DNA of 64,000 nt, taken from IMG/VR virus record IMGVR_UViG_3300015371_000010, positions 1 through 64,000 of that record, one strand, 5' to 3'. The stretch comes from a virus. The position numbers were made by a program, and so were the translations under genes. The notes below the pieces were generated by a model. The model saw only the letters and a list, made by a program, of their open reading frames with translations. It searched no databases and was not told the origin of the DNA. The stretch's first letter is position 1. Each line of letters starts with the position of its first letter. This document shows, piece after piece, positions 1 through 8,191 of this stretch.

Positions 1-168
1 CGGCGCGAGCGCGGGCTGGAACGTGTCGATGCAGATTGGATCTTCATCGTCGCGAACCGCTGCGGTCTGGGGGGGCGCGACGTACGTCGGCGTGACGTAG
101 ACCACGCGCTCCCGATAGCACCCGGCGAGCGCAACCAGCGCGAGGCACGTAACGAGAGCGCGGGACAT
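1..168 (-). CDS. Putative lipoprotein, truncated by the window edge
   Basis: ATG at 168 preceded by GGAGG; translation MSRALVTCLALVALAGCYRE has a hydrophobic signal peptide and an LAG-C lipobox. Confidence 0.6.
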   Translation of the reverse strand, partial: MSRALVTCLALVALAGCYRERVVYVTPTYVAPPQTAAVRDDEDPICIDTFQPALAP

Positions 169-171
169 GAT

Positions 172-291
172 CTACCTCCGTGGTGTGCGGCGGCGCTTCT
201 CCTCCGCCTCCATGCAGTTGGCGATCCGGTTCAGGTGCCGGGCGATCTGGTTGATGTCCTGGTACATCTGCACTTCGTAGCCAGTGGGCAT
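172..291 (-). CDS. Small hypothetical protein (MPTGYEVQMY...)
   Basis: ATG at 291 with a GGGAGG SD, overlapping the upstream stop codon. Confidence 0.55.
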   Translation of the reverse strand: MPTGYEVQMYQDINQIARHLNRIANCMEAEEKRRRTPRR

Positions 292-581
292 CAGTGCCTC
301 CCGTTCTTTCCTAGTTCCCAGGCACCGGCGAGCAGCTCGGTGCCATAGGCCTTGTAGATGGGCGTTCTCGGTCTGGAGGCCCGAGCCACCCGGGCCACTG
401 CGTGGGCGTCCCGGTTGGGCACCTTGCGCTCGGTCAGGACCCGCCGCTGGTTGCGGTTCCTGATGTCGGCCTGGATGGTGCCCAGCGCTGCCTTGAAGGC
501 CAGCGCGTGCTCGGCGCACATCGGCCTGGTCTCGACCTGATCGTCGGCCTGCTTGGTACAGGTGGAGTAGAAGCAGATCAC
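291..581 (-). CDS. Hypothetical protein with Cys/His (possible Zn-binding) N-terminus
   Basis: 96 aa ORF tiled in the leftward operon; CxxxxC...CxxH. Confidence 0.55.
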   Translation of the reverse strand: MICFYSTCTKQADDQVETRPMCAEHALAFKAALGTIQADIRNRNQRRVLTERKVPNRDAHAVARVARASRPRTPIYKAYGTELLAGAWELGKNGRH

Positions 582-636
582 GGGCGAACTCCTATCGTCA
601 CGATCACCACGAACGCGGCCGTGACCAGCAGCCAGA

Positions 637-1008
637 TCACCGGCTCTCCTCCGCCCGCTTGGTCACCCGCTCGGCGTGGTGGACTACGCACAGCGTCTTG
701 ATCCAGTAGCCGCCGTCGTAGTCCGGGAACCCGTCATCCCCACACACCTCGCAGATCTTGAACGACTCGGTCTCCGCAGCGCTGATCCGAGCATGGAACT
801 GGGAGACCAGCTCCGCCGGGGTGGCGTTGGGCACGGCCGCGTAGTAGCGCAGCCCACCGAACTTCTCCTTGACCTGCTGCAGGCTGTAGTCGGGAACCAG
901 CGCGGTCAGCTCCGTCTCCAGGTCTCGGACCAGCGGTCGCCAGCCCTCCCCGACGTTGGTGATCCCGGTCATCATGTCCCGGGGCTCGACCTCCGATGGG
1001 CCGGTCAC
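637..1008 (-). CDS. Conserved phage hypothetical protein
   Basis: GEGW, QVKEKFGGLRYY and CEVCG...TLC..H motifs typical of a widespread phage family (from recall). Confidence 0.75.
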   Translation of the reverse strand: MTGPSEVEPRDMMTGITNVGEGWRPLVRDLETELTALVPDYSLQQVKEKFGGLRYYAAVPNATPAELVSQFHARISAAETESFKICEVCGDDGFPDYDGGYWIKTLCVVHHAERVTKRAEESR

Positions 1009-1256
1009 CGGACGATCACCTCCTGCTCGGAGATGACCTCGATCTTGGTGTAGCCGTGGCCGTTGCCCAGTACCTCCTGAGCCTTGGCCCAGATGGCCGG
1101 CATCACCTTGACGTGCCGTAGGTCCCCAGAGCGCTTCTGAGGCTTCTTCCGCTCCTGGGTGGGGGTTGGGTCCACCTCACCGCTGGCGACGGCCTGAACG
1201 GCCTTTTCATGCAGACTGGCGGTCTCCTGGACCGTCCTGCCCTTCTTCTGATTCAT
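1005..1256 (-). CDS. Hypothetical protein
   Basis: 83 aa; GAAGGAATGAG SD upstream; 4-nt overlap with the next gene. Confidence 0.65.
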   Translation of the reverse strand: MNQKKGRTVQETASLHEKAVQAVASGEVDPTPTQERKKPQKRSGDLRHVKVMPAIWAKAQEVLGNGHGYTKIEVISEQEVIVR

Positions 1257-1458
1257 CTGATCTCATTCCTTCCATCAGAGCCATCAGCTCTGCAGGTTCC
1301 TTCAGTACCGGACCCTCGATGCACCAGGGCCCGTCCGGAGTGCGGTGCCGGCTGATCGGCCGGCCCGAGGTCATGTAGACATCAGACCCGCAGGTCTCGC
1401 ATGCGACGTACCAGCCCACATCAGTCCTCGGAGCCGTTCTTCTCCCCGAACTCCTCAT
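1207..1458 (-). CDS. Possible small Zn-ribbon protein (start uncertain)
   Basis: CETCGS...H...C; fills the gap between two leftward genes but overlaps both. Confidence 0.4.
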   Translation of the reverse strand: MRSSGRRTAPRTDVGWYVACETCGSDVYMTSGRPISRHRTPDGPWCIEGPVLKEPAELMALMEGMRSDESEEGQDGPGDRQSA

Positions 1459-1882
1459 CCGGGTCGACCATGTCCGGGTCGTCCAGGACCATCCTGGAGA
1501 ACTCCTCGTAGTGCGCGTACCGCGCCTTGAACCGCTTCCACTCCCGGAACATCTGCCGCAGCATGATGTTGCGCGAGATCGGGTCGACGATGACCTCTTC
1601 GATCGGTACGTACTGGCTCTCTGAGTCCTTCTCGGTCCCCTTGATCACCCAGAAGTGCCTCAGGTTAGCCACCTCTCCGCTCTCGGCGGTCTGCCGAAAC
1701 GTGACTCGCAGCAGCTGTGCCGCCTGGGCCAGCCGGTACTTCTCGGCCGCCACCGAGTCGTCCCACTCGAACTTGTCGTGCAGCGGGTGCTCCGGGTCCG
1801 TCGCCTCGGCCAGCACGATGGCCGGCGTCAGCTTGCCCCGCTCCTCTCGGATCCTGAGGAGCTCTGTCTTCAGATCACTCAT
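1421..1882 (-). CDS. Conserved phage protein; putative accessory protein of the RAMP/array locus
   Basis: 153 aa; GKLTP...ATDPEHPLHDKFEWDDSVAAEKYRLAQA motif; strong SD (GAAAGGAATGAG); begins right where the array ends. Confidence 0.8.
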   Translation of the reverse strand: MSDLKTELLRIREERGKLTPAIVLAEATDPEHPLHDKFEWDDSVAAEKYRLAQAAQLLRVTFRQTAESGEVANLRHFWVIKGTEKDSESQYVPIEEVIVDPISRNIMLRQMFREWKRFKARYAHYEEFSRMVLDDPDMVDPDEEFGEKNGSED

Positions 1883-1900
1883 CTCATTCCTTTCATGTGT

Positions 1901-4673
1901 GTGGCCACGCTGGACCTAGCCCTACCAACCCAGATGCGGCCTTGCCTTGCCTGCCATGCCATCCGTTCCCTGTCCCGACGACCCAAGTCCTGCTTGCCAT
2001 GCCTGCCAGGCCTAGCGGGACCGCGAGCACCTGGCCTTGCCTGCCAAGATCCGCCCCGACTACCCATGAGTCGCTTTACCAAGAACGCCTTGCCTGCCCT
2101 GCCGAGTACGCCTAGCCCGGGCTTGCCCATCGAGCCGTTCCTTGCCTGCCCCGTCTTGCCCCCACAAGCCAAGACCCAGACGGCCATGCCTGCCCTGTCT
2201 TGCCGTGACGAATCCGCCAAGCCCACCATCCGAGCTGCACCATGCCTGCCATGCCCCGTCGTCCTCGACGCACCGATCGACCGCGCCGACCACGTCCCGC
2301 CTAAACCAGCCTGCCGCGCCGGGTCGTGCCGTGATTGCCTTGCCACGACCGGCAGAGCCTGCCGCGCCGGATTCAGCCATCCCCGCCGTGTCAAACTCAC
2401 CACGCCTGCCCTGTGCTGCCCTGTACTGCCTTGGCACACCTACCCAAGCCAGGGAGCACCCTGCCTGCCAGGCCAACCCAGCCTTGAACGCCGCAGTAAG
2501 CCTTGCCGCTCAGCGCCTGCCCAACCGGGACTCGCCTTGCGCCGACCAATGGGACACGCGATGCCATGCCTGCCGAGACTTGCCTTGCACTCCAAGACGG
2601 GCCTGGACTACCCAGTGATGACCTGCCGACGGCCACCTCGACGAGCCATGCCTGCCCTGCCCCGGTTCCCAAGCACCGCTGCACCGGGCCGTGACGTGAA
2701 TGCCATGCCTGCCATGCCTGGCCAAGTCCGGCGATCCCGCGCCTAGTCGCAGATAGCCCTGTGATGCCCCGCCTGCCGTGCCTGGCCTCGACTCAATGGG
2801 ACTGACCGAGACCGAATCGCCCAGCCTGCCGTGCCTGGACATGCGCGTGCCCACCCAGACCCAACGAGCCTGCCTCGCCAAGCCTTGGCATGACCGGATC
2901 CCGTACCGGGCCTGCCTCGCCCTGCCTGGTCTGGACTTGAGTTACCTCGTCACACCAGGTGTTGCCCCGCCTGCCATGCCGACCAAGCCGAGCGGTGCCA
3001 TCCCTCTGGACCACCCGTGCCTTGCCTGCCGTGACCGGAGAGACCTCGCCACGCCGTCCGCACGCCCTACCTACTCGGGCCCTGCCAACGGTGCCATGCC
3101 TGCCACGTACTGCCGGAGAGCGCCGTCCAAACCAAGACCGTCCATGCCTGCCACGCCGGACACTGTCACACACGCCAAGACCAGCAATCCAAGCCCATCC
3201 ATGCCTGCCGGGCCGGGCCGCGCCGTCCCCGACGCTGACAAGAAGTACCTAACCCTGATACGCCATGTGATGCCTGGCCTGCCGTGATCGGCCATGCCAC
3301 CCAACTGCCCCGTTATCCGAGCCCTGGCACACCTGCCATGACTCACCACGCCCAGCACCGTTGAGCCAACCGAACCCAACCTCGCCTGCCGCACCTAGTC
3401 GGGCCTCGCCGTCGGTAGCCAAGCCGGGACTGCCATGTCCTGCCGGAGCAAGACCTGATCTGCCTGGCCTGCCGCACCAGAACGAACCACACCTATCGGA
3501 GCCAAGGTGCCCATCCGAACCGCGCCTGCCCAGCCATGACCGTCGAACCTCACCGAGCCACGGGGCGCCTGCCGAGACAAGACACACCGATGCCCAACTT
3601 GTCCGGCCGTGCCAAGCCTGCCTCGTCGTACCACACCGGGTCGGACCGGCCCAAGCTACGCAGTGCCATGTGACGCCTTGCCTGCCACACCGCCCAAGCC
3701 AAGTCCTGGTGAGCCATGCCTGCCGTGCTCCGCCATGCCTAGTAGTGCCGGAACCGGCCACCCGAGCCACTTGACCCTGCCTGCCCTGTCCCGCCCACCC
3801 TAGACACTGACAGCCTTGTTCTGCCCTGCCTGCCGCGCTCCGCCATGCCGCTGCGAAACCGACCTAGCCGCGCCATCGGCCGCCCCGCCTAGCCTGCCGC
3901 GCTTCGCCATCCGGACCACGGATACCCTGCCGGTCCTTGCCTAACCTGCCACGCAGCCAAGCCGTGATTGCCTTACCCGAGCTAGCCGCGCCTGCCACGT
4001 GGGGCCACGTACCGACTTGTCCCGTGATGCCTGGTCTTGCCTAGCCTGCCATGCCCCGAGACGCCGAGCGCTGAATGACGGGTCATCCATGCCTAGCCTG
4101 CCTGACCATGCCGATCCGGACCGTCCCTGGCCGAACCTGCCTAACCATGCCGAGACCGACCCGACCATGAACGGTCGAACCCTGCCTGCCAGGTCAGGCC
4201 CAACCACGCTCCGCCTCACCGTGCCGGGCGAAGACAGCCGTGCCTGCCGTGCCGTGCCTAGCCGGGCCTAGCCAAGGGCCGCCTTGCCTGCCCCGCCGAC
4301 CAAGCCTTGCCAAGCGTCACCAAGCCGGGCCTGCCGAGCACTGCCTAGAATGCCGCGTCGCCCATGACCAGACCCGCTGAGCCTGCCCAGCCATGCCAGG
4401 CCTCGCCTTGCCGCGCCGTGCCTAGCCGGGCCTAGCCTGCCCTGCCGTGCGATGACGCCCTCGCCGGGACGACCCAGAGGATGCCTTGCCGCGCCTGCCA
4501 AGCCCATCCAAGCAGCACTTACCCGGCCGCGCCCCGTGGGACCGCGTCGAGGACCCGGGGGCAGGTGGGTTCCCTGGCCGTCCTGCCCCCGGGTGGTTCT
4601 TGCCTGCCCCGCCGCGCCATGTTCAAGCCATAACGTTCCTGGCCCTACCAAGCGCCGCCACGACATGCCTGCC
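1901..4673 (-). repeat. Non-coding array of ~50 units: GGCAGGC handle + (NN-GGY)n pentamers; candidate guide-RNA array
   Basis: Manual count: 47 exact GCCTGCC (+ strand; 1949, 2001, 2039 ... 4602, 4667) plus 4 ACCTGCC variants, mostly 42-65 nt apart. A 5-nt NN-RCC period lies between them, e.g. 4381-4441 gcctgcc cagcc atgcc aggcc tcgcc ttgcc gcgcc gtgcc tagcc gggcc ta gcctgcc. No credible ORF. Confidence 0.9.
4553..4594. other. Perfect 13-bp hairpin inside the array
   Basis: ACCCGGGGGCAGG (4553-4565) / CCTGCCCCCGGGT (4582-4594), 16-nt loop. Confidence 0.8.
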
Positions 4674-5440
4674 TAGCTGATGACCTCGACTTGCTTGGCC
4701 GGATTGATGCAATAGGTGCCGTATTCGCCGCGCCTCTCCGGACGCCACTCACCGACACCCACACCGAGGCCGCCGGCCTCGATGAGACTGAGGACCGAAT
4801 CCCTGGTCAACATTGACTTGACGTAGGTGACATCCAACGTGGTCTCCCACTCCTGCCAGCAGGGCCGGTAGCGGAGGTCGGTGCCACCGTTTCCAACCCT
4901 GACCACGTCCTCGCGCATCTCCGGCGTGCCTGAGATGCGAGCCAGCATCATCCCCTCGCCCTTGGAGAACTCGCCACCAATGAAAACCGTCTGGCGCAGA
5001 CCAACCATCGTCACCGACTTGCCGAAGAACCTGGCGGCGGAGACGGTGGCGGACTTGAAGGCGATGGCCGGGATGCCATAGCCCCCGTCGTCGAGCCGGT
5101 AGGCCGCTGCCTCGTACTCGGCCTCTGGGTTCTTGGGCTCCTTGGGGGACTTGCGTCCCTGCATCGCGTCCAGCATCTGCCTCTTCGCCTTCTCGCTGAA
5201 CTTGTGCGTGATCAGCGGGGAGGTGCCGAGCAGTGGAACGCGCACCGTCTCGGTGGCGATCTTGGAGATGACGATCTGACCCTCGGGCATCGTGTGCTCG
5301 GTGGTCTGCGGCTTCTTCAGGGGCGTCGTCGTCACCCCGTTGCCCGACGGCCTGGTCACCGCCGTGGCCTTGGCGGCCTTGGTGGCCTTCTTGACTGCCT
5401 TCTTTGCCGCCTTCTTGGCCGGCATCGCATCTACTGACAT
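4673..5440 (-). CDS. Stand-alone RAMP (Cas7/Csm3-like) protein with Lys/Ala-rich N-terminal tail
   Basis: RAMP-like motif order: VRVPLLGTSPLITH (beta1), YGIPAIAFKSAT (IPxSxxKG-like), DLRYRP.W..W, C-terminal Gly-rich loop GLGVGVGEWRPERRGEYGTY; SD GAAAGGA upstream. Confidence 0.75.
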   Translation of the reverse strand: MSVDAMPAKKAAKKAVKKATKAAKATAVTRPSGNGVTTTPLKKPQTTEHTMPEGQIVISKIATETVRVPLLGTSPLITHKFSEKAKRQMLDAMQGRKSPKEPKNPEAEYEAAAYRLDDGGYGIPAIAFKSATVSAARFFGKSVTMVGLRQTVFIGGEFSKGEGMMLARISGTPEMREDVVRVGNGGTDLRYRPCWQEWETTLDVTYVKSMLTRDSVLSLIEAGGLGVGVGEWRPERRGEYGTYCINPAKQVEVIS

Positions 5441-5465
5441 GATGGTGGTTCATTCCTTTCATGAG

Positions 5466-5506
5466 CAGGGGCCCGGGAACTCATCTCCCGGGCCCCTGTG
5501 CTTTTT
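5466..5506 (+). terminator. 13-bp hairpin with T-tract on the + strand, just upstream of the RAMP gene SD
   Basis: CAGGGGCCCGGGA-actcatc-TCCCGGGCCCCTG followed by tgcttttt. Confidence 0.6.
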
Positions 5507-5722
5507 CTAGTGCCAGGACAGGACAAGCATTCCGCCGCTGTCCCAGGCGGTCGTGGAGGTGGCCAGCGCCTTCTCGATGGCTGGCAACCTGAACGGTGGG
5601 ATGTTGCGGTGGCCGATCTCCCAGGCACTGACGACCTGGGCTGAGACCCCCATCTCCTCGGCCAGCTGTGACTGGCTCATCCCAGCCTCGTGTCGCCGGC
5701 TCTTGAGCTCCTCACCGGTCAT
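5507..5722 (-). CDS. XRE/Cro-family HTH regulator
   Basis: LKSRRHEAGMSQSQLAEEMGVSAQVVSAWEIG; ATG at 5722 with GAAAGGA SD. Confidence 0.85.
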   Translation of the reverse strand: MTGEELKSRRHEAGMSQSQLAEEMGVSAQVVSAWEIGHRNIPPFRLPAIEKALATSTTAWDSGGMLVLSWH

Positions 5723-5750
5723 GTGTGTCCTTTCGTCGTTTGTCACTGCG

Positions 5751-5972
5751 TCAATCCCTCGCTCGGTGGTACGTCTCCACAACGGCCAGAACCGTGGTGA
5801 TCCACTGAGCAGCATGCAGGTCCACCGGCCAGACGACCCGTCGATCGGTGAACGTCATGATGAAGCCGTACTGACCGACCACGCGCTTGACCGTCTCCTC
5901 GGGGAGGTGGTCAGGAACGTCGATCGACCATTGCGGCACTGATCCGTCGTCGAGCTCAAGCAACGTGGTCAC
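5751..5972 (-). CDS. Hypothetical protein
   Basis: 73 aa, tiled in the operon. Confidence 0.55.
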   Translation of the reverse strand: MTTLLELDDGSVPQWSIDVPDHLPEETVKRVVGQYGFIMTFTDRRVVWPVDLHAAQWITTVLAVVETYHRARD

Positions 5973-6213
5973 ACTCGAACACGCCGGAGTGGATCAGGTG
6001 CACAGACTCGCCGTCCTTGGTGATCTCCAGCACGACCTTGCGGACGTGCAGAGACTCGGCCAGCTGACCGATCGGCTCGATGGCCTCGGCCAGCATCTTG
6101 CTGTACTCCTCGGTCGCGTCTCCCACGGTGGAGTGGTGATGCGTGAACTCGACCTCGTTGCAGTAGGTGATGGTGACGGTGATGACGCTGCCGTCCACTG
6201 CGGTGATGGTCAA
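5956..6213 (-). CDS. Hypothetical protein
   Basis: 85 aa; TTG start after the ACATCACAT-GAGAGGA motif. Confidence 0.6.
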   Translation of the reverse strand: MTITAVDGSVITVTITYCNEVEFTHHHSTVGDATEEYSKMLAEAIEPIGQLAESLHVRKVVLEITKDGESVHLIHSGVFECDHVA

Positions 6214-6362
6214 CGGATGATTCCTCTCATGTGATGTGCTCTCTTCCTGCTCAGGGTGCGGGTCACCCTCCAGACACGCACGCCGATCGACCCCCCGGAA
6301 GATGACGTGCGCGCTGGGCTATGACCCCCGACCCCCCGGAGGAGGGCCACAGCGGTCTGTGG

Positions 6363-6734
6363 CTACCTCACCCGATCGGGATGGTGGTAGGGCCGCTGTT
6401 TGAGCGACGCGCCCTTGCGGGCTGGATGTGAGCACTTGTAGATCCACTGCATGTGGAGCACGACCTCATCATCATCGTGCCGACACTTGTGGACGGTGAT
6501 TCTGGCCAGGTGCGACCAGTCGGGGAAGAGCGAGAGCCAATCTTGTGGATCTTGGTTCTTCTTGAAGTGGCCGACTTCGCGACCGCTCATACCGATCAAT
6601 GTCAACGCGGCTGCGGCCTGGTTCGCCGCTGCCTTGTTCGCCATGAAGGTGCCGTCATCGAACTTCACGATGTGGATCGTGCCGGTGCAGTCCTCCAGAA
6701 CCAACTCGGCATAGTCAAAACCCTTCTTGCTCAT
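6363..6734 (-). CDS. Hypothetical protein
   Basis: ATG at 6734 with GAAGGG SD. Confidence 0.55.
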   Translation of the reverse strand: MSKKGFDYAELVLEDCTGTIHIVKFDDGTFMANKAAANQAAAALTLIGMSGREVGHFKKNQDPQDWLSLFPDWSHLARITVHKCRHDDDEVVLHMQWIYKCSHPARKGASLKQRPYHHPDRVR

Positions 6735-6867
6735 GGAACCCTTCCGTTTGGTGCTGACCTGACCATGACTTGACCAGGGGTAATCCTCGCCTCCGAGGAT
6801 CACGTGTGTGTGATGAGCATGATGAGACTGGCGAGCGACACGACCACCAGCGCCCCGATGGCGGCGA

Positions 6868-7266
6868 TCACTGGGCCGCCGCCAGGGCCGGGATCGAGTG
6901 CGTCGTCCAGATCACAACGCGCTCGGCCACCTTGGGGTCACGGGCGTCCAGGTCCTGGTGCCACTCGATGGGCGCGATGTTGTGGGTGACGAAGTGCGCG
7001 AACTGCTCCGGCAGGTCCAAGAAGGCGTACTCCTGGTAGCCGTCGGAGAGCATGCACTCCGCGATGATCCGGGCGTCCTGCTCGGTGACCTGGCTGCGCT
7101 CGACCTCGAAGTAGATCGGGCCGTCCTGGCCGAACGGCTCCTGGAGGATGCCGGGCAGCGGGCCGTTGATGTCGGCCGGGTGGAAGATGTGGAACCGGAA
7201 GGTGGCCGGGTCGTCGTAGCGACGCAGGCCGACGACGAACTCCGGGTAGATGACGATCTCGTCCAT
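6868..7266 (-). CDS. Hypothetical protein
   Basis: 132 aa, strong GC3 bias, preceded by the ACATCACATAGGA motif. Confidence 0.75.
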   Translation of the reverse strand: MDEIVIYPEFVVGLRRYDDPATFRFHIFHPADINGPLPGILQEPFGQDGPIYFEVERSQVTEQDARIIAECMLSDGYQEYAFLDLPEQFAHFVTHNIAPIEWHQDLDARDPKVAERVVIWTTHSIPALAAAQ

Positions 7267-7300
7267 GGTGGGAACCCATTCCTATGTGATGTGGACATGC

Positions 7301-7332
7301 GAAAGGCCCCATAGCCGAGTTGCTATGGGGCC
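7301..7332 (-). terminator. Intrinsic terminator-like hairpin
   Basis: GGCCCCATAGC/GCTATGGGGCC 11-bp stem followed by TTTC on the minus strand. Confidence 0.6.
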
Positions 7333-7350
7333 GGGTACTGCAGAGGGCGC

Positions 7351-7494
7351 CTAGCGACGCTTGTACTTCCGGGAGGTGACGAGGTTCCAGTAGAGCCCCT
7401 TCAGCTCCCGGACGATCAGGGCTGCGGCCACGAAGCAGCTGAAGTCCAGCAGCCCGCGTGCCGCGGCGGCGAGGTACCACTTCAGGTACCTCAT
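7351..7494 (-). CDS. Small membrane protein (MRYLKWYL...)
   Basis: ATGA overlap with the upstream gene; hydrophobic stretch. Confidence 0.5.
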   Translation of the reverse strand: MRYLKWYLAAAARGLLDFSCFVAAALIVRELKGLYWNLVTSRKYKRR

Positions 7495-7784
7495 CGCTGG
7501 CCTGTGGCCTTGTCTGCCTGCATGATGCCGATCCCGGCCATGACGCCGGTCAGGACCAGTGCCAGCACGCAGATACCGATGGAGGTGAGAAGCCAGATCC
7601 CACCATCGAGGTTGTCCAGGACCTGGTTGAAGAGCCAGCCGCAACCCATCCAGGCTGCGAACCCGCCCCATCCGAACCAGCGCCAGAAGACCTTTGTCCA
7701 GCTGGCCTCTTCGGGGGTCAGAGTGAGGTTCGGTCGGGGTCCAGGTCGCTCGACCAGGTACACCGGCTTGGGCTTGTGAGTCAT
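7491..7784 (-). CDS. Membrane protein (2 TM)
   Basis: ATG at 7784 after the ACATCACATAGATAGGA motif; two hydrophobic segments. Confidence 0.65.
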   Translation of the reverse strand: MTHKPKPVYLVERPGPRPNLTLTPEEASWTKVFWRWFGWGGFAAWMGCGWLFNQVLDNLDGGIWLLTSIGICVLALVLTGVMAGIGIMQADKATGQR

Positions 7785-7846
7785 GCCATTCCTATCTATG
7801 TGATGTCGAGATCTGGCCCCGTGCCCTGATCTCAGATGTGCTGGGA

Positions 7847-8191
7847 TCAGATCGCGACGTAGCGAGTCATGGCGAGGTGCTGGGTGCCGTCGTACTTGAC
7901 CCGGAAGGCCACCATGACGACCTTGCCCGAGTGCGGGCGGCAGTCGTTGTAGGCGTACATCGCGTAGCGGGTGCCCTCGTAGCTGTCGTTGATGTGGAAC
8001 CACGGGTGCGCGTGGGTCGCGGCGTTGACCTGCTTGGTGGTCATGCCGAGCCGCAGATTCGCCTTCTCCGACATGCTGATGCAGTCGTAGTTGCTGGCCG
8101 CCTGGGCCTCGGGTGCGGTGACCGCCAGGGTGCCGGCGCTGATCGCGGTGATGGCAGCCACGCTGGCCGTGGCCTTGATGATGATGTTCAT
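7847..8191 (-). CDS. Secreted hypothetical protein
   Basis: Signal peptide ending in AQA; SD AGAAGGA. Confidence 0.75.
   Translation of the reverse strand: MNIIIKATASVAAITAISAGTLAVTAPEAQAASNYDCISMSEKANLRLGMTTKQVNAATHAHPWFHINDSYEGTRYAMYAYNDCRPHSGKVVMVAFRVKYDGTQHLAMTRYVAI

Follow-up and report, generated by a model that had tools for sequence, protein, structure and literature searches.

A long, internally degenerate array beside a vipr gene of an uncultured phage: a probable staggered vrRNA array of a VIPR system

Background

VIPR, made known in 2026 (bioRxiv 10.64898/2026.04.26.720920), silences DNA by means of guide RNAs and is related to CRISPR. According to the main text of that preprint, its parts are (i) a small, stand-alone RAMP (repeat-associated mysterious protein) with RRM core, G-loop and thumb, termed Vipr, (ii) an accessory gene (vap), and (iii) vrRNAs, i.e., guide RNAs, of 9–16 GGY/NN pentamers. 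Experiments with other phages reported there demonstrate that only the NN dinucleotides pair with double-stranded DNA (dsDNA), one target base being skipped per pair; the skipped base mostly corresponds to the wobble position of a codon. Seven VIPR types are distinguished in the same text, some of which possess staggered arrays with vrRNA boundaries at 1-nt overlapping positions (fig. S18) and neither spacers nor ribozymes between adjacent vrRNAs. For types II, VI and VII, the vaps are predicted to bind DNA, some of them being winged-helix-like. The present study concerns a tract of comparable build at 1901–4673 (minus strand) of a 64,000-nt stretch of viral DNA (positions 1–64,000 of the 82,687-bp IMG/VR virus record IMGVR_UViG_3300015371_000010; hereafter the window), which adjoins a gene for a Vipr homologue (vipr).

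Genes for a DNA polymerase, a DnaB-like helicase, a portal protein and a terminase are located in the window; the best matches of the portal protein (45–48 % identity) are from Arthrobacter phages and one other phage. With a probability of roughly 85 %, the tract represents the vrRNA array of a VIPR system in an uncultured phage, probably of Actinomycetota. This identification is based on the adjacent Vipr RAMP gene, the GGY/NN pentamer lattice and the one-base register slip between units, and the class of the array is that of the staggered vrRNA arrays. A first-pass annotation of the tract had derived the logic of VIPR (fixed GGY, informative NN, wobble-skipping target and one-base-short junction) from the raw sequence alone. 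The idea of a gapped code is not new, since it was published in 2026 (bioRxiv 10.64898/2026.04.26.720920, main text).

Array anatomy

On the minus strand, the tract reads as GGY/NN pentamers with internal degeneracy and frequent 1-nt slips, punctuated by the heptamer GGCAGGC (the handle). The handle array on a GGY/NN lattice described by the first-pass annotation is real: the minus strand of 1949–4673 contains 47 handles and the plus strand of this region none, compared to 16 copies on both strands in the rest of the 82,687-bp genome. In total, 61 copies of GGCAGGC were counted in the window, while 100 shuffles averaged 25.8 (sd 5.7) and never exceeded 48. Neighbouring handles are 38–109 nt apart (46 spacings, median 54.5), and the median unit of about 10 pentamers falls within the published range of 9–16 repeats. 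Taken modulo 5, the spacings give 4 in 15 cases, 3 in 14, 2 in 12, 0 in 3 and 1 in 2. Thus, the proposed 9+5n class comprises 15 of 46 spacings with others off by 1–2 nt, as had been noticed, while the listed spacing of 29 does not occur.

The base-identity autocorrelation of 1901–4673 is highest at lag 5 (0.415), confirming the 5-nt peak that had been expected, with 0.18–0.32 at lags 1–4 and 0.272 at lag 6. Later peaks appear at lags 9, 14, 19 and 24, as predicted by a 4-nt step per unit. A sliding scan revealed 1835–4614 to be the only stretch of the genome with a lag-5 value above 0.42. The adjacent coding DNA displays a lag-3 signal instead; since such a signal is missing from 1901–4673, a coding function of the array was ruled out.

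In a slip-tolerant five-state parse, GGY occupies 274 of 471 pentamers (log-odds +283). The same parse applied to three base shuffles yielded 87–116 GGY among 451–462 pentamers (log-odds −520 to −611), and 63 among 448 were found in flanking coding DNA. The parse contains 115 slips, nearly all of them 1-nt deletions, 47 of which are the handles themselves. GGY is best preserved in the two pentamers adjoining each handle and falls off towards the middle of the unit. Within the array, the NN positions are near-uniform (commonest base 30–50 %), whereas the GG next to the handles reaches 89–91 %.

The junction base of GGC-N-GGC is A in 47/47 cases within the array. Elsewhere in the genome, GGCNGGC occurs with C (97), T (55), G (32) and A (16), the GGCAGGC variant being the rarest. 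The proposal that GGC-A-GGC marks a processing boundary fits the published 1-nt overlap of staggered arrays. The array strand is the sense strand of the flanking genes.

Tandem Repeats Finder reported only periods of 5–15 for the array. A CRISPR repeat-spacer array with repeats >20 nt was not encountered, the 7-nt handle being the sole exactly repeated element, and neither known RNA families nor tRNAs were found in the window. Among 50,697 phage records, no match to the array was obtained by megablast. Sigma-70-like promoters were absent from 1–8000 (0.8 expected), and a consensus scan detected no terminator-like site on the minus strand within 1901–4673.

The Vipr protein

The vipr gene (4673–5440, minus strand) encodes a RAMP/Cas7-like protein of 255 amino acids (phrog_4652; no Pfam family). 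The last base of its TAG stop codon is shared with the first handle, i.e., the array starts at this position. Used as a single sequence, the protein matches PDB 36pp_D ('SUSP1 Vipr protein') at E=4.9e-5; a profile of 41 sequences does so at E=2e-12, the next best match being at E=0.34. The HMMER match to 36pp_D is confined to the C-terminal part (query 129–202 of the profile). An AlphaFold2 (AF2) model of the protein (predicted local distance difference test, pLDDT, 86.5) retrieved 93 PDB matches at E≤0.001 by Foldseek, the best from E=3e-6. Chains of type III Csm/Cmr, type VII and Cas7-11 complexes rank first among them. The matched chains of about 200 residues are presumably Csm3/Cas7 backbone subunits; the entries titled Cmr6 and DiCas7-11 state their identity themselves.

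In the single-sequence alignment with 36pp_D, four SUSP1 residues (R138, D177, W178 and R179) correspond to R192, E231 (D to E), W232 and R233. All four are described as contacts of GGY in SUSP1 Vipr (bioRxiv 10.64898/2026.04.26.720927). Among the 41 homologues, R192 and R233 are invariant and E231 is conserved to at least 90 %. SUSP1 residues H17, E71 and M72 are not alignable, such that the comparison of GGY contacts is limited to the four residues.

Residues 1–50 of Vipr (window 5291–5440, minus strand) form a Lys/Ala-rich low-complexity tail (PAKKAAKKAVKKA...) of low pLDDT. The tail is kept in the close homologues P0004, P0005, P0007 and P0011 but lacking in most members of the family, which have about 205 amino acids. 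It may be an added, putative tail for unspecific DNA binding.

Neighbouring genes and proposed mechanism

Beyond the array, about 20 nt past its last unit, starts the gene for a 153-amino-acid protein (p153; 1421–1882, minus strand; phrog_15946), a candidate vap. Its AF2 model (pLDDT 89.1) comprises a winged-helix-like N-terminal domain and a long helix. Alignment of the model to winged-helix DNA binders (VIA-align) gave Z values of only 5–6.4, across residues 1–99. The predicted structure is compatible with a DNA binder of the vap type, which is not proof.

Upstream of vipr, a gene for a Cro/CI-type helix-turn-helix (HTH) protein is located at 5507–5815 (minus strand; PF01381 HTH_3, E=1.3e-12). 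Among the array loci, only one weak tblastn match to this gene was obtained. Between the HTH gene and vipr, both on the minus strand, a GC-rich hairpin of 14 bp and a subsequent T-run (5465–5499) resemble a terminator on the plus strand. No other cas genes are present among the ten flanking open reading frames (ORFs) scanned.

By analogy with the described systems, the minus-strand array would be co-transcribed with vipr (4673–5440) and the accessory gene (1421–1882), and the precursor would be cut at or near each GGC-A-GGC to units of about 54 nt. Judging from the homology with the SUSP1 system, Vipr protomers may polymerise on each unit, one per pentamer, sequestering the GGY bases and exposing the NN dinucleotides. 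The latter would then pair with dsDNA while every third target base is skipped, and genes of competing elements could be transcriptionally silenced whatever their synonymous codon changes.

Related loci

A pattern scan of IMG/VR for three spaced handles retrieved at least 120 loci. Among the matches listed, 57 hold 5-periodic arrays with unit lengths of 4+5n; these arrays are frequently much cleaner than that of the window. Within the fetched flanks, which were limited and often cut, a vipr homologue accompanies 40 of these 57 periodic arrays and 4 of 63 non-periodic loci listed; for p153 homologues, the respective counts are 38/57 and 2/63. Pattern-found arrays (matches listed) contain a median of 5 and a maximum of 27 handles.

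A protein-based search yielded 11 viral and 3 genomic loci, the latter titled Nonomuraea, Solirubrobacteraceae MAG (metagenome-assembled genome) and 'Flavobacterium' MAG contig. In the sister phage L129, Vipr shares 86 % protein identity, 48 handles are present, and the order vipr–array–p153 is identical. Two further sister phages carry 66 (L130) and 59 (L137) handles, compared to 0–20 in the other protein-found loci. In these three loci, retrieved by the protein alone and thus independently of the handle pattern, the junction base is likewise A in 48/50 (L129), 66/67 (L130) and 59/60 (L137) cases. Because the pattern-found arrays have a median of 5 and a maximum of 27 handles, the subclade of the window is an outlier in array size. 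While the order vipr–array–p153 is conserved in the sister phages, most fetched relatives have vipr, the accessory gene and then the array.

These loci also bear on a quite different explanation, namely that the tract acts as DNA (centromere, iterons, Chi-like nuclease decoys or G-quadruplex DNA) and is unrelated to RNA guidance. The 47 co-oriented G-rich heptamers near one contig end and a GC skew of about −0.25 would suit such an element, and the GGN3GG spacing could conceivably allow two-tetrad quadruplexes. Against it, the tract always adjoins a Vipr homologue and is co-oriented with the genes on either side, its 5-nt GGY/NN grammar and 4+5n units are exactly those published for vrRNAs, and no partition or replication-initiator genes occur among the ten neighbouring ORFs scanned. 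A DNA-level element is therefore regarded as very improbable. Chi-like decoys near the genome end, a centromere/iteron array and G-quadruplex DNA were dropped solely on account of the Vipr homologue and the vrRNA grammar. The same two observations alone led to the dismissal of a TRAP-like RNA-binding ring (11 GGC triplets per 54-nt unit).

Vipr homologues are also encoded by the Gordonia phage Pipp group and by Mycobacterium phages such as Quico, where they are annotated only as 'hypothetical protein'. In Gordonia phage Pipp (MN234179.1; L143 4138–4343), a clean GGCNN array adjoins the Vipr homologue gp42; the annotated coding sequence gp43 overlying this array is probably not a real gene. In Mycobacterium phage Quico (NC_028751.1; L144 2671–2911), a clean GGCNN array occupies the interval without annotation that separates gp56 from gp57, the latter being the Vipr homologue. 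ORFs overlying vrRNA arrays in deposited actinophage genomes are likely misannotated. The Flavobacterium sp. MAG contig JASLID010000133.1 (L140; 15 kb) carries a Vipr of 71 % identity, a p153 homologue and an array of 6 handles, and looks like a phage contig of the actinophage-related family binned into an unrelated genome.

Unit degeneracy

Assignment of the tract to VIPR has to be weighed against the degeneracy of its units, their divergence from the sister phage, a structural search with the accessory protein and most of the target searches, all of which speak against it. Only 2 of 46 units combine a length of 4 modulo 5 with at least 80 % in-phase GGY, and GGY accounts for only 59 % (274/471) of the parsed pentamers. 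Degenerate triplets had indeed been pointed out from the beginning, with GAC and GTC, besides CAC, being common in the array. For most units, the degeneracy does not permit a clean reading as the guides of 12–22 specified bases envisaged at that time. Foldseek of the 153-aa model returned no match at E≤0.001.

About 31 % of the array is alignable to that of L129, in blocks of shuffled order, at 82 % DNA identity of the vipr genes. In the alignable blocks, mismatches affect 55 of 332 NN positions (16.6 %) and 85 of 516 triplet positions (16.5 %). A greater variability of NN than of GGY is thus seen within the array but not in the divergence of these blocks, which looks like drift rather than conservation of the scaffold. 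Despite the difference of about 16.5 % in alignable units, 47/47 handles are intact, which, judged from the sequences, suggests strict conservation of the handles under selection.

These data raise the alternative that the VIPR array is largely decayed, most of the 47 units being relics that neither load Vipr nor act as guides any longer, and only a few (the units G1 and G2 described below) still active. The scarcity of canonical units (2/46), the equal divergence of triplets and NN from L129, the frequent 1-nt slips inside units (a total of 115 slips in the parse, including the 47 handles) and the degenerate guides without a target signal are all to be expected from decay. They are opposed by the 47 intact handles with their invariable A at the junction, as a 7-nt site subject to about 16.5 % drift per base would survive in only about 28 % of cases (own arithmetic). 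Moreover, the units keep to a length of roughly 10 pentamers, three sister phages retain arrays of 48, 59 and 66 units, and degeneracy does not change with position in the array (Spearman rho 0.04, p=0.79). On the whole, extensive decay is considered somewhat unlikely. Under the preferred reading as a VIPR guide array, it may be asked how extensive the scaffold of a vrRNA has to be, given the strictly conserved handles and the degenerate unit interiors.

The sole fully canonical unit, G1 (4388–4441, minus strand), has 10/10 GGC and the NN string TA CC TA AC GC AA GA CT AT TG; together with the next handle, 4441–4388 agrees exactly with the reading quoted in the first-pass annotation. The second cleanest unit, G2 (4249–4292, minus strand), contains 7/8 GGY and the NN string AA GG TT TA CC TA AC AC. 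Neither G1 nor G2 has a counterpart in any other fetched array, which, like the small alignable share of the L129 array, points to a turnover of guides and favours the assignment to VIPR. The two units share a 23-nt segment (GGC-TA-GGC-CC-GGC-TA-GGC-AC-GGC), located 3'-terminally in one and 5'-terminally in the other. This overlap suggests unequal recombination within the array as a source of new guides.

The atypical second unit (109 nt) includes a GC-rich hairpin (4553–4592, minus strand) with perfect inverted-repeat arms of 12 bases and a loop of about 16 nt; the surrounding 181 nt fold better than 200/200 shuffles (z −2.9).

The GC content of the NN positions is 0.46–0.48, compared to 65 % GC of the phage. 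Fitting NN to codon positions 1–2 resulted in −3.98 to −4.02 bits per NN and did not surpass the uniform model (−4.00), whereas phases containing the wobble position fit much more poorly (−4.5 to −5.1 bits per NN). The composition of NN is thus compatible with a wobble-skipping code without being diagnostic.

Target searches

The DNA scanned for guide matches consisted of 1.36 Mb of related loci and the phage's own genome (both strands, arrays masked). With skips of 0–3, 190 clean guides from all fetched arrays scored the same as their shuffled versions, and 25 guides of the window displayed no excess of matches over shuffles at any of these skips, nor of 1-skip matches over other skip rules. 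The enrichment of gapped matches anticipated by the first-pass annotation is hence missing from this DNA, although the gapped, wobble-blind code as such equals the published one. The single 100 % match in the scan with 25 guides is L145, a locus that had been fetched with that same pattern, and is thus circular.

Self-targeting of the 82.7-kb genome (array masked) by the 25 guides was likewise not apparent, the maximum of real minus shuffled guides amounting to 0.03–0.26 bases for skips of 0–3. The best 1-skip self match (13/14) lies outside any wobble-compatible reading frame. A 14/14 match with skip 3 of a degenerate 7-NN unit (window ~2812) is located in apparent coding DNA at 75,681–75,712 of the genome, outside the window; with about 100 guide-by-rule tests, it probably arose by chance.

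Exact 1-skip scans of IMG/VR were performed with four guides of the window. Three of them (G1 and the guides of units 1955 and 4190) had no match, while G2 had 11. In a metagenome collection, a single exact match of G1 was obtained (L145), about the number expected by chance on a rough estimate. No match of G1 was found in 3 genomes at up to 3 mismatches. Among 401 genomes from the phylum of Nonomuraea, up to 2 mismatches gave one forward match (L146), compared to none with the backward control. Both G1 matches (L145 and L146) fall, in frame, on the [HQ]ISS..VYGY motif of genes for NAD-dependent epimerases. In the phage collection, homologues of these epimerases are distant only, and none is from an actinophage. 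With about one match expected and only distant phage homologues, the epimerase was rejected as a target of G1 and attributed to chance plus homology. All guides compared with the two epimerase loci and three loci of purZ (see below) exhibited no convergence.

Sister phages L130 (12244–12292) and L137 (11907–11955) have in common a near-identical, fully canonical guide of 9 NN, in which one base differs. An exact 1-skip scan of IMG/VR with the common guide gave no match. Read as codons, it corresponds to AGY[IM]GA[HQ].., which is reminiscent of the Rossmann GxxGxxG motif.

The large number of units with few identifiable targets and conserved handles could also point to a decoy or sponge, the degenerate units soaking up or misdirecting the Vipr of rival phages instead of guiding that of the phage itself. 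There is a certain likeness to the standalone vrRNAs of satellites, which, according to a further preprint (bioRxiv 10.64898/2026.10.15.759431), redirect VIPR to decoy sites. However, the array immediately follows an intact vipr of the same phage, as in an operon, and the order vipr–array–p153 recurs in the sister phages; both observations argue against such a role, making it improbable.

Guide G2 and purZ

Returning to the tract as a guide array, G2 is the one guide of the window for which a target candidate can be named. Under the 1-nt-skip rule, its 16 informative bases translate to [KN]G[FL]YPYTT. Four of its 11 exact 1-skip matches in IMG/VR are in genes for adenylosuccinate synthetase of the purZ type (PF00709, phrog_1211), in sense frame and with the peptide NGFYPYTT. 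These four matches represent 3 distinct genes of about 45 % amino acid identity, among which 7/7 skip bases vary. The control with reversed order of dinucleotides gave 15 matches, which cluster only among near-identical contigs.

The NGFYPYTT window is one of only 3/370 eight-codon windows invariant at codon positions 1–2 across the three purZ genes. A chance match landing on such an invariant window would likewise be multiplied by homology. No purZ is present in the phage itself, and no other guide converges on the purZ contigs. In the purZ genes of actinophages (Korra, Ghobes, Goodman, Hiyaa and Parvaparticeps), in which the motif differs, G2 matches only 9–11 of 16 bases. At the same site, 14/16 bases match in Barton and K21lambda1 (Acinetobacter and Klebsiella phages) and 12/16 in phiVC8. 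Taken together, purZ is a tentative candidate target of G2, at clearly less than even odds. One may speculate that an actinophage-related clade has expanded VIPR from a few guides to 47–66 contiguous units, with at least one well-preserved guide (G2) aimed at the invariant NGFYPYTT motif of purZ, a scenario deemed unlikely in its entirety.

PurZ allows phages to replace adenine by diaminopurine in their DNA. If the assignment of G2 were correct, it would represent RNA-guided silencing of the genome-modification pathway of a competitor and link VIPR to conflict with Z-genome phages. A single wobble-blind guide of eight codons would then cover purZ genes sharing only about 45 % protein identity.

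Comparison with known systems

The mechanism and the array type considered here are already in print (2026 preprints, main texts), and this clade may already be contained in their supplementary tables. 'Actino', 'Mycobacter', 'Gordonia' and 'Streptomyces' are absent from the main text of bioRxiv 10.64898/2026.04.26.720920. What the present locus adds is the placement of VIPR in a lineage related to actinophages and the observation that arrays can reach 47–66 units (2.8–3.9 kb), along with the array position between the two genes, the extreme degeneracy inside units at fully preserved junctions, and purZ as a candidate target.

With the published staggered VIPR arrays, the tract shares the phage-borne arrangement of a Vipr RAMP gene beside tandem GGY/NN pentamers, the presence of an accessory gene, and directly consecutive units with a one-base register overlap. 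It differs in its 47 units over 2.8 kb (48–66 in the sister phages), array sizes not being given in the main text of the preprint, and in the share of canonical pentamers of only 59 %. Unlike in most fetched relatives, vipr and the accessory gene are separated by the array.

The type II VIPR of Escherichia phage SUSP1 possesses a homologous protein with R, E/D, W and R contacts for GG and the same 5-nt GGY/NN repeat. In contrast to the four vrRNAs of about 100 nt with structured 3' tails described for SUSP1, the units of the window have no tail and only the 7-nt junction, and Vipr carries an additional Lys/Ala-rich N-terminal tail.

Clusters of period 5 with Vipr-like folds were also reported from the Evo-PIN survey, including GAC/NN and CAC/NN triplets (bioRxiv 10.64898/2026.10.21.760802, main text). 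There, one fixed non-canonical triplet is repeated 10 times throughout a cluster, whereas a single unit of the present array may combine canonical with degenerate triplets.

Compared to the crRNA–Cas7 assemblies of class 1 CRISPR systems (types III, VII and Cas7-11), the RAMP fold, one protomer per short RNA period and periodic unpaired guide positions (the last according to the main text of bioRxiv 10.64898/2026.04.26.720920) are held in common. In place of a repeat-spacer array with long repeats, however, the tract described here has a period of 5 nt with 2 informative bases.

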